Positions 52,032-54,595 of a DNA stretch of 64,000 nt are shown in pieces. The stretch comes from Escherichia coli. Its GTDB lineage: Bacteria; Pseudomonadota; Gammaproteobacteria; Enterobacterales; Enterobacteriaceae. Location of the stretch: the NCBI RefSeq assembly GCF_003334765.1, contig NZ_QOWT01000001.1; one strand, given 5' to 3'. The position numbers were made by a program, and so were the translations under genes. The notes under the pieces were generated by a model. It was not told the DNA's origin. It searched no databases and saw only the letters and a list, made by a program, of their open reading frames with translations. Numbering within the stretch: the first letter of the stretch is position 1; each line of letters opens with the position of its first letter.

Positions 52032-52439
52032 TTAGTTGCCCAGACCGCGACCGGCGTCTTTCTCTTCGATTAACTCAATTTTGTAACCGTCCGGATCTTC
52101 CACAAACGCGATAACCGTAGTACCGCCTTTTACCGGACCCGCTTCACGGGTCACGTTACCCCCGTTTTGACGGATTTTTTCGCACGCTTCAGCGGCGTTA
52201 TCTACGCTAAGCGCGATGTGACCATAAGCAGTGCCGAGTTCGTATTTATCCACGCCCCAGTTGTAGGTCAGTTCAATCACCGCTTCTTCGGTTTCCGGGC
52301 CGTAGCCAACAAACGCCAGTGAGTATTTGTATTCCGGGTTTTCGCTGGTACGCAGCAGTTTCATGCCCAGCACTTTGGTATAAAAATCGATGGAGCGTTG
52401 CAAATCGCCAACGCGCAGCATGGTATGAAGAAGACGCAT
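52032..52439 (-). CDS. gloA: Glyoxalase I (lactoylglutathione lyase)
   Basis: 135-aa [50 protein letters not shown]…. Confidence 0.95.
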
Positions 52440-53653: not shown

Positions 53654-54253
53654 CTAAACGGCAGGCGTCGCAATAATGTTTTTTACATGGGCCAGCGCGT
53701 TTTCCAGTGGCTCGAAACTGCGCGAAATTTTGGCCTGCAGATTCGCGCCAAGCCACAGTGCGTAAAGCACTTGTGCCTGTTGCAGCGGTTCGCCACAAAA
53801 GGTTAAACAATGGTTCTCACGGCCATTTTCCAGCGCCTGAGAGAGCAGGGCGATCACGCCGCGAGCACCTTTATCCATCGCGCTGCGCATATCTTCTGAC
53901 AGATCGCACACTTCGGCAGAGAGTTTTACTGTCAGGCAACCACTGATGGTTCCATGTTGGCAAAACTGGTTCAGTGTTTGCTGGTAATAAGCCAGTATGC
54001 GGTCGCGGTAGTTACCTTCGCCGGATTGCAGCAACTCAGTCAGTCGCTGGTGATATGCGGCGTAATGACGCTCAAGCATGGCAACGCCAAACGCTTCTTT
54101 AGAGCGAAAGTAGTGATAGAAGGACCCTTTCGGCACTTCAGCGGTTTTTAGTAATTCGCTTAGCCCCATCCCGGTGAATCCACGTTGCAGGCAAAGTTGC
54201 TCGCCCGTCGCCAGGAGATGTTCGCGAGTATCATGTTCGGTGTGTTTGTTCAT
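53654..54253 (-). CDS. nemR: TetR-family electrophile-sensing repressor
   Basis: 199-aa ORF with an N-terminal TetR HTH, directly upstream of nemA. Confidence 0.9.
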   Translation of the reverse strand: MNKHTEHDTREHLLATGEQLCLQRGFTGMGLSELLKTAEVPKGSFYHYFRSKEAFGVAMLERHYAAYHQRLTELLQSGEGNYRDRILAYYQQTLNQFCQHGTISGCLTVKLSAEVCDLSEDMRSAMDKGARGVIALLSQALENGRENHCLTFCGEPLQQAQVLYALWLGANLQAKISRSFEPLENALAHVKNIIATPAV

Positions 54254-54257
54254 GCGT

Positions 54258-54273
54258 TGGAGTGTAGTAGACC
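54258..54273. promoter_or_regulatory. Putative NemR operator
   Basis: TAGACCAGTCGGTCTA (inverted TAGACC half-sites) 5 bp upstream of the nemR start codon, as expected for an autoregulated TetR-type repressor. Confidence 0.5.
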
Positions 54274-54355
54274 AGTCGGTCTAGTGCAAGCAAAGTTGCT
54301 ACTTTGGACATTAACAGCTTCAATAATGGTAATAATCTTATCTGAGGAGGGCGAA

Positions 54356-54595
54356 GTGGCGGAGCAATTAGAGTTCTTTCCCGTCCAGAGCCCGTGCCGG
54401 GGAATTTGCCAGTCTGACGAACGCGGGTTTTGTCGCGGCTGTTTTCGTAGTCGTGATGAGCGTTTTAACTGGAATAAAATGAGCGATGGCGAAAAACAAG
54501 AGGTGCTGCGCCTTTGTCGGCAGCGATTAATGCGCAAATTACGCGCAAATAAGCCAGCGTCATCAGACGAACCGGAGCAACCATCACTCTTTTGA
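54356..54595 (+). CDS. ydhL: DUF1289-type small Cys-rich protein
   Basis: GTG start at 54356 gives (M)AEQLEFFPVQSPCRGICQSDERGFCRGCFRSRDERFNWNKMSDGEKQ… (79 aa); the track ORF begins at a distant upstream Met. Confidence 0.7.
   Translation: MAEQLEFFPVQSPCRGICQSDERGFCRGCFRSRDERFNWNKMSDGEKQEVLRLCRQRLMRKLRANKPASSDEPEQPSLF

Follow-up and report, generated by a model that had tools for sequence, protein, structure and literature searches.

The nemR-nemA-gloA locus and its palindrome

The window analysed here, a stretch of 64,000 nucleotides of Escherichia coli DNA, carries the genes nemR, nemA and gloA in this order on its minus strand and, divergently oriented to nemR, the gene ydhL on its plus strand:

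52032-52439, minus strand: gloA, encoding glyoxalase I (NCBIfam NF007629, score 305.6 bits, cut-off 246); part of its expression is due to transcripts that read through from the nemR promoter (PMC3739934)
52520-53617, minus strand: nemA, encoding N-ethylmaleimide reductase of the Old Yellow Enzyme family (NCBIfam NF007899, score 764.6 bits, cut-off 403), co-transcribed with nemR (PMC3739934)
53654-54253, minus strand: nemR, encoding a TetR-family repressor which senses electrophiles and HOCl (ORF; RefSeq name in E. coli genomes; match to the NemR structure PDB 4YZE with E = 3.9e-127)
54356-54595, plus strand: ydhL (ORF with a GTG start at 54356)

The gene order nemR-nemA-gloA had already been proposed in the first-pass annotation and was confirmed, since all three genes are located on the minus strand and the products of nemA and gloA score above the curated NCBIfam cut-offs. 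The NemR protein itself passed none of the NemR models of NCBIfam; its best match was the model of the Pseudomonas TetR repressor CurR with 196 bits, which is below the cut-off of 300, followed by AcuR. The ORFs of nemR and ydhL are separated by 102 bp, and this intergenic region contains the palindrome that is the subject of the present analysis, referred to in the following as the NemR box. The gene next to the box is thus that of NemR, with nemA and gloA downstream of it.

A query of 1.1 kb around the box matched all 5426 of the 5426 complete E. coli genomes, and over the 116 bp surrounding the box the window is identical to the genome of E. coli K-12 MG1655. In two E. coli genomes (NZ_CP104112.1 and NZ_CP148440.1) the match is split in two around an IS1A element. 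The former of these genomes has two annotated DUF1289 (ydhL) features, which suggests that IS1 has been inserted in or beside ydhL, near the nemR promoter.

The box, which reads TAGACCAGTCGGTCTA on the plus strand and TAGACCGACTGGTCTA in the sense of nemR (minus strand), comprises 16 bp and consists of perfect 6-bp inverted arms, TAGACC and GGTCTA, around a 4-bp centre. It occurs as a single exact copy in the 64-kb window, at positions 54268-54283, corresponding to 1725993-1726008 in the MG1655 genome (U00096.3). The inverted TAGACC palindrome recognised in the first-pass annotation does therefore exist, with both arms perfect, and only its placement had to be revised: the interval 54258-54273 given previously is 10 bp too low and takes in the left arm only, and the distance to the nemR ATG amounts to 14 nt (54254-54267) instead of 5 bp. 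Counted from the A of this ATG, the centre of the box lies at -22.5.

While the exact 16-mer was present in none of the shuffled versions of the window, palindromes of its general class were frequent, as 29 perfect 6-N4-6 palindromes were detected in the window compared to about 15 in the shuffles. The chance that the 102 bp between nemR and ydhL hold one such palindrome is about 0.02-0.04. Due to this abundance the palindrome alone is weak evidence of a function, and the weight of the box comes from its position, its conservation and the published binding, beyond the bare pattern. A search of the window for a second site of the form TAGACC-N4-GGTCTA with at most 3 mismatches returned no more hits than expected by chance, and none of them was located near the operon.

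A second perfect 6-N4-6 palindrome, CAAAGTTGCTACTTTG, which is unrelated to the NemR box, lies 7 bp away from it at 54291-54306. It spans -53 to -38 relative to the nemR start site and -40 to -25 relative to a weakly supported start site of ydhL at 54331. E. coli and E. albertii have this palindrome, whereas it is missing from Citrobacter and more distant relatives, and related copies in the window were not above the chance level. It could represent a genus-specific site for some factor acting on ydhL or have arisen by chance.

Position of the box in the promoter of a leaderless mRNA

According to published transcription start sites (PMC3415461, Table S4) the start site of nemR in E. coli coincides with the start of the ORF, corresponding to a 5' UTR of 0 (15 reads). 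Its orthologue in Klebsiella pneumoniae, listed there as ydhM, is leaderless likewise with a 5' UTR of 0 (20 reads). On this basis, and with the window being identical to MG1655 at this site, position +1 of nemR was set at 54253. With transcription beginning at the A of the ATG, the box spans -30 to -15, and the promoter region can be described by the following elements:

54284-54289, minus strand, -36 to -31: putative -35 hexamer TTGCAC, deduced from its distance of 17 bp to the -10 hexamer, the presence of TTG in 38 of 40 loci and the published start site
54268-54283, no strand assigned, -30 to -15: NemR box (operator), TAGACCGACTGGTCTA in nemR sense (54283-54268), directly abutting the -35 hexamer; unique exact match in the window, listed in Table 1 of PMC2475637 and conserved in 40 related loci
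54267, nemR sense, -14: single base C between the box and the -10 hexamer
54261-54266, minus strand, -13 to -8: putative -10 hexamer TACACT, deduced from the published start site and the occurrence of TAnnnT in 38 of 40 loci with an unchanged distance to the box
54254-54260, nemR sense (54260-54254), -7 to -1: discriminator ccaacgc
54251-54253, minus strand, +1 to +3: ATG of nemR, at whose A (54253) the leaderless mRNA begins (PMC3415461, Table S4)

The box thereby fills 16 of the 17 bp of the spacer between the -35 and -10 hexamers of a promoter of the sigma-70 type and overlaps the core promoter. The earlier description of the palindrome as lying upstream of the start of nemR holds in so far as it precedes the gene; more exactly, the palindrome is located inside the spacer of the promoter from which a leaderless mRNA is transcribed.

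No promoter was predicted in the nemR-ydhL intergenic region by the generic scan, which missed the nemR promoter due to the weakness of the hexamers, which agree with the consensus at 3 of 6 (-35) and 4 of 6 (-10) positions. The nemR promoter was instead defined by the published start site together with the conservation of its elements. The supplements of the Cappable-seq study contained no entry for the nemR promoter region.

Among the box-bearing loci of the Enterobacterales no conserved Shine-Dalgarno-like sequence was detected upstream of nemR, which agrees with a leaderless transcript and accounts for the fixed distance between the box and the ATG. For nemR, a "ribosome binding site" mutation has been named (PMC3045373), a wording that represents the authors' reading of a SNP. 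This wording sits uneasily with a leaderless nemR mRNA and may need to be re-read.

The mapped start sites also bear on a role of the palindrome at the level of RNA. Inverted repeats can form stem-loops and the box might accordingly be regarded as a terminator or as part of a 5' UTR that folds into a hairpin. However, the box lies outside both mRNAs because it is located upstream of both mapped start sites (nemR, 54253; ydhL, 54331), there is no T-run at the box, and the terminator scan made no call there. A role in RNA was thus considered to have a negligible probability, and the box was rejected as an intrinsic terminator or RNA hairpin since it is not transcribed according to the mapped starts.

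Conservation of the promoter-operator unit

A tblastn scan of species-representative genomes with NemR as the query yielded 80 loci. The box, with at most 2 mismatches, was found in every locus in which nemR and nemA are syntenic (L001, L003-L035, L038 and L067, plus the truncated L002), including representatives of Escherichia, Citrobacter, Enterobacter, Kluyvera, Erwinia, Budvicia, Providencia, Yersinia and Serratia. The identity of NemR across these loci lies between about 50% and 96%. In most of the syntenic loci the distance of the box centre to the start codon is -21.5 to -23.5; for Serratia, the match obtained by tblastn begins further downstream.

The arrangement TTGnnn-box-N-TAnnnT-(6-10 nt)-ATG was present in 38 of the 40 box-bearing loci. 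The spacing between the -10 hexamer and the ATG comprises 6-8 nt across the Enterobacterales and 10 nt in Serratia. In an alignment anchored on the box, the information content per column upstream of the ATG revealed conservation of the TTG, the box and the TA...T only, whereas the flanking sequences are not conserved. Within E. coli, the 56-bp promoter segment was detected in 5423 of the 5426 genomes, in 5039 of them with at least 99% identity. Strain 3CM, the lowest-ranked among the matches listed, differs at one position of the -35 hexamer and at -2, and at none in the box.

The high frequency of 6-N4-6 palindromes in the window, where an unrelated one occurs only 7 bp away, would be compatible with a functionless palindrome that arose by chance. 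Against this stand the register of the box with the -35 hexamer, the -10 hexamer and the ATG in 38 of the 40 box-bearing loci amid unconserved flanks, and the published binding of proteins to the box (PMC2475637, PMC5297802, PMC13178969). The probability of a chance origin appears vanishingly small, and judging from the conservation of the sequence this explanation can be regarded as effectively refuted.

The divergent orientation of ydhL, the short distance of 102 bp between the two ORFs and the ydhL start site, which maps to position 54331 of the window (PMC3415461), raise the question whether the palindrome serves as an operator of ydhL rather than of nemR. Relative to this start site, which is based on 2 reads only, the box is located at -63 to -48 and thus outside the core promoter of ydhL. 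Moreover, ydhL is directly divergent from nemR only in the core Enterobacteriaceae. In Yersinia, Erwinia, Mangrovibacter, Cedecea and two loci of the Enterobacter clade ydhL is found 0.9-1.9 kb away while the position of the box in front of nemR is unchanged, and in Serratia, Providencia and Budvicia ydhL is absent from the locus, with the box still at its fixed position before nemR. It therefore seems very unlikely that the palindrome is the operator of ydhL.

Upstream of the NemR box, many Enterobacteriaceae have retained the sequence ATTGAAG (nemR sense; CTTCAAT on the plus strand, 54319-54325), the distance to the box being variable. This motif is probably part of the ydhL promoter, since on the opposite strand it occupies the place of a -10 element relative to the mapped ydhL start site (54331, 2 reads).

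Thirty-three distant NemR-like TetR genes with 39-48% identity (among loci L036-L080) were found to be preceded by a 15-bp box, TAGAC-N5-GTCTA. In most cases this box reads TAGACGAC[T/C]GGTCTA; its half-sites are those of the NemR box, placed 1 bp closer together than in the 16-bp box of the Enterobacterales. The hosts include Vibrio, Photobacterium, Pseudomonas, Burkholderia, Lysobacter, Rhodobacteraceae and others. The offset of the 15-bp box from the start of the gene varies (about -22 in L037, -28 in L039, -31 in L054, -47 in L060 and -28 in L072), and an adjacent nemA is absent from many of these loci. By chance such a box would be expected in about 2e-4 cases per locus. The comparison of the two boxes suggests that the spacing of the operator has moved by one base pair within the NemR-like family. 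The group of genes with the 15-bp box may correspond to CurR-like relatives.

NemR and RutR at the same box

Presumably the box is identical to the site described as the NemR box of the K-12 nemRA(-gloA) promoter by Umezawa et al. (2008, J Bacteriol 190:5890) and to the NemR site of RegulonDB/EcoCyc; we take the palindrome named in that work to be exactly the 16-mer at 54268-54283 and its footprint to cover these bases. Searches of the literature text did not retrieve an explicit sequence of the NemR box or operator, and the only full-text match for the 16-mer was the RutR ChIP-chip study PMC2475637. In the comparison with published operator sequences which had been proposed in the first-pass annotation, the 16-mer and its position at -22.5 were recovered from Table 1 of PMC2475637, where they are listed as a RutR site.

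The regulation of the operon by NemR has been described in the literature. Deletion of nemR increases the expression of nemA 15-fold and that of gloA 5-fold, the latter via read-through, and NemR senses HOCl and electrophiles via its cysteines (PMC3739934). Glyoxals and quinones lower the affinity of NemR for DNA (PMC5297802). A SNP in the nemR promoter has been predicted to abolish the repression by NemR (PMC3045373). The supplementary coordinates of this study for the promoter SNP of strain NCM4300 refer to an assembly made by its authors and disagree with the positions of the ORFs, and were disregarded for this reason. The structure of NemR has been solved (PDB 4YZE).

Taking these reports together with the position of the box in the core promoter and its conservation with nemR-nemA across the Enterobacterales, the earlier reading of the palindrome as an autoregulatory operator is well supported. 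We consider it highly probable that positions 54268-54283 represent the operator (NemR box) of nemR-nemA(-gloA), at which a NemR dimer occludes the core promoter; for the exact protected bases we rely on secondary citations. The sequence of the box, its position relative to the published start site and its conservation were established here, and the binding of NemR, the repression and the inactivation via cysteines are taken from the literature.

According to the proposed mechanism a NemR dimer would sit on the two TAGACC half-sites and occlude the spacer between the -35 and -10 hexamers. The bound NemR is presumed to keep the RNA polymerase off the promoter by steric exclusion rather than by a later block; both the binding of a single dimer per box and the steric exclusion are what we infer from the arrangement of the promoter. 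As a result, nemR itself, nemA and the read-through share of gloA would be repressed. According to the literature, alkylation or oxidation of NemR cysteines by N-ethylmaleimide (NEM), methylglyoxal, quinones or HOCl weakens the binding of NemR to the DNA and thereby derepresses the operon.

The box as such is an already described repressor site of the E. coli nemR promoter and an ordinary element, covered by the literature as well as by regulatory databases. It shares with the NemR box of K-12 the same DNA, given that the promoter is identical to that of MG1655, the same 16-mer, the same position at -22.5 and the same regulator (4YZE), and there is no difference in sequence between the two. 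The present analysis adds the corrected coordinates, the assignment of the box to the spacer between the -35 and -10 hexamers of a promoter for a leaderless mRNA, a comparative footprint which reveals a compact unit of promoter, operator and start codon conserved across the Enterobacterales, and the reminder that RutR binds the box as well. Such a compact promoter responsive to electrophiles and HOCl could be of practical use in biosensors.

The first-pass annotation made no mention of the documented binding of RutR to the same box. In the ChIP-chip and EMSA study of RutR, TAGACCGACTGGTCTA is listed with a score of 11/14 at -22.5 in the intergenic region of ydhM (PMC2475637, Table 1); ydhM is the old name of nemR. 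In agreement with this entry, the box matches the RutR consensus TTGACCAnnTGGTCAA at 11 of 14 positions, including the key A at position 4 and the key T at position 13. Since RutR binds the box in vivo (PMC2475637), NemR is not its exclusive occupant.

These observations raise the possibility that the box is mainly a site of RutR, the uracil- and thymine-responsive regulator of pyrimidine catabolism, and that RutR controls nemRA-gloA through it. The RutR ChIP-chip peak and motif coincide with exactly this 16-mer, and sites that, like this box, have both key positions belong to the high-affinity class in EMSA (PMC2475637). Furthermore, overexpression of NemA resulting from mutations in nemR or its promoter suppresses the loss of RutE (PMC3045373), and thus a physiological link between the Rut pathway and nemA exists. 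However, in a review RutR was stated to bind upstream of nemRA-gloA without having a role in its regulation (PMC5297802), and in genomic SELEX nemR was identified as the single target of NemR (PMC5934670). In addition, the box accompanies nemR-nemA across the Enterobacterales, and the A at position 2 and the T at position 15, which deviate from the RutR consensus, are strongly conserved in the boxes of the orthologues. It therefore seems unlikely that the box is mainly a RutR site.

We regard it as similarly improbable that the box is a shared operator of the TetR-family paralogues NemR and RutR in which a uracil- and thymine-responsive layer exerted by RutR would become visible only when NemR is inactive or limiting. 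If this were true, the dual control would couple the Rut pathway, whose toxic intermediate can be detoxified by NemA in place of RutE, to the expression of nemA.

The NemR box can be compared with several known systems. The operators of RutR (TTGACCAnnTGGTCAA; Shimada et al. 2008, PMC2475637) resemble the NemR box in being 16-bp palindromes with the same spacing of the half-sites. The NemR box differs from the RutR consensus in having A/T instead of T/A at positions 2 and 15 and G instead of A at position 7, and unlike the RutR operators it accompanies nemR and not the rut genes.

With TetR and tetO, the NemR system shares an autoregulated repressor of the TetR family, a palindrome of 15-16 bp in the core promoter and the derepression by loss of DNA affinity. 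The tetR mRNA of Tn1721 is a classic leaderless mRNA. In the engineered promoter PLtetO-1 the operator (tetO) is also located between the -35 and -10 hexamers. NemR differs from TetR by responding to covalent modification or oxidation of cysteines instead of the reversible binding of a ligand, by its single operator and by the co-transcription of the regulator with its targets, which are not divergently oriented.

AltR of Pantoea ananatis, a homologue of NemR, represses its own gene via a perfect inverted repeat that overlaps the -10 box and the ribosome binding site, and as in NemR thiol-reactive compounds cause derepression via a conserved cysteine (PMC13178969). The operator of AltR differs from the NemR box, as it consists of CAATCTAC-N6-GTAGATTG and thus has another geometry, and its inducers are thiosulfinates and not NEM or diamide.
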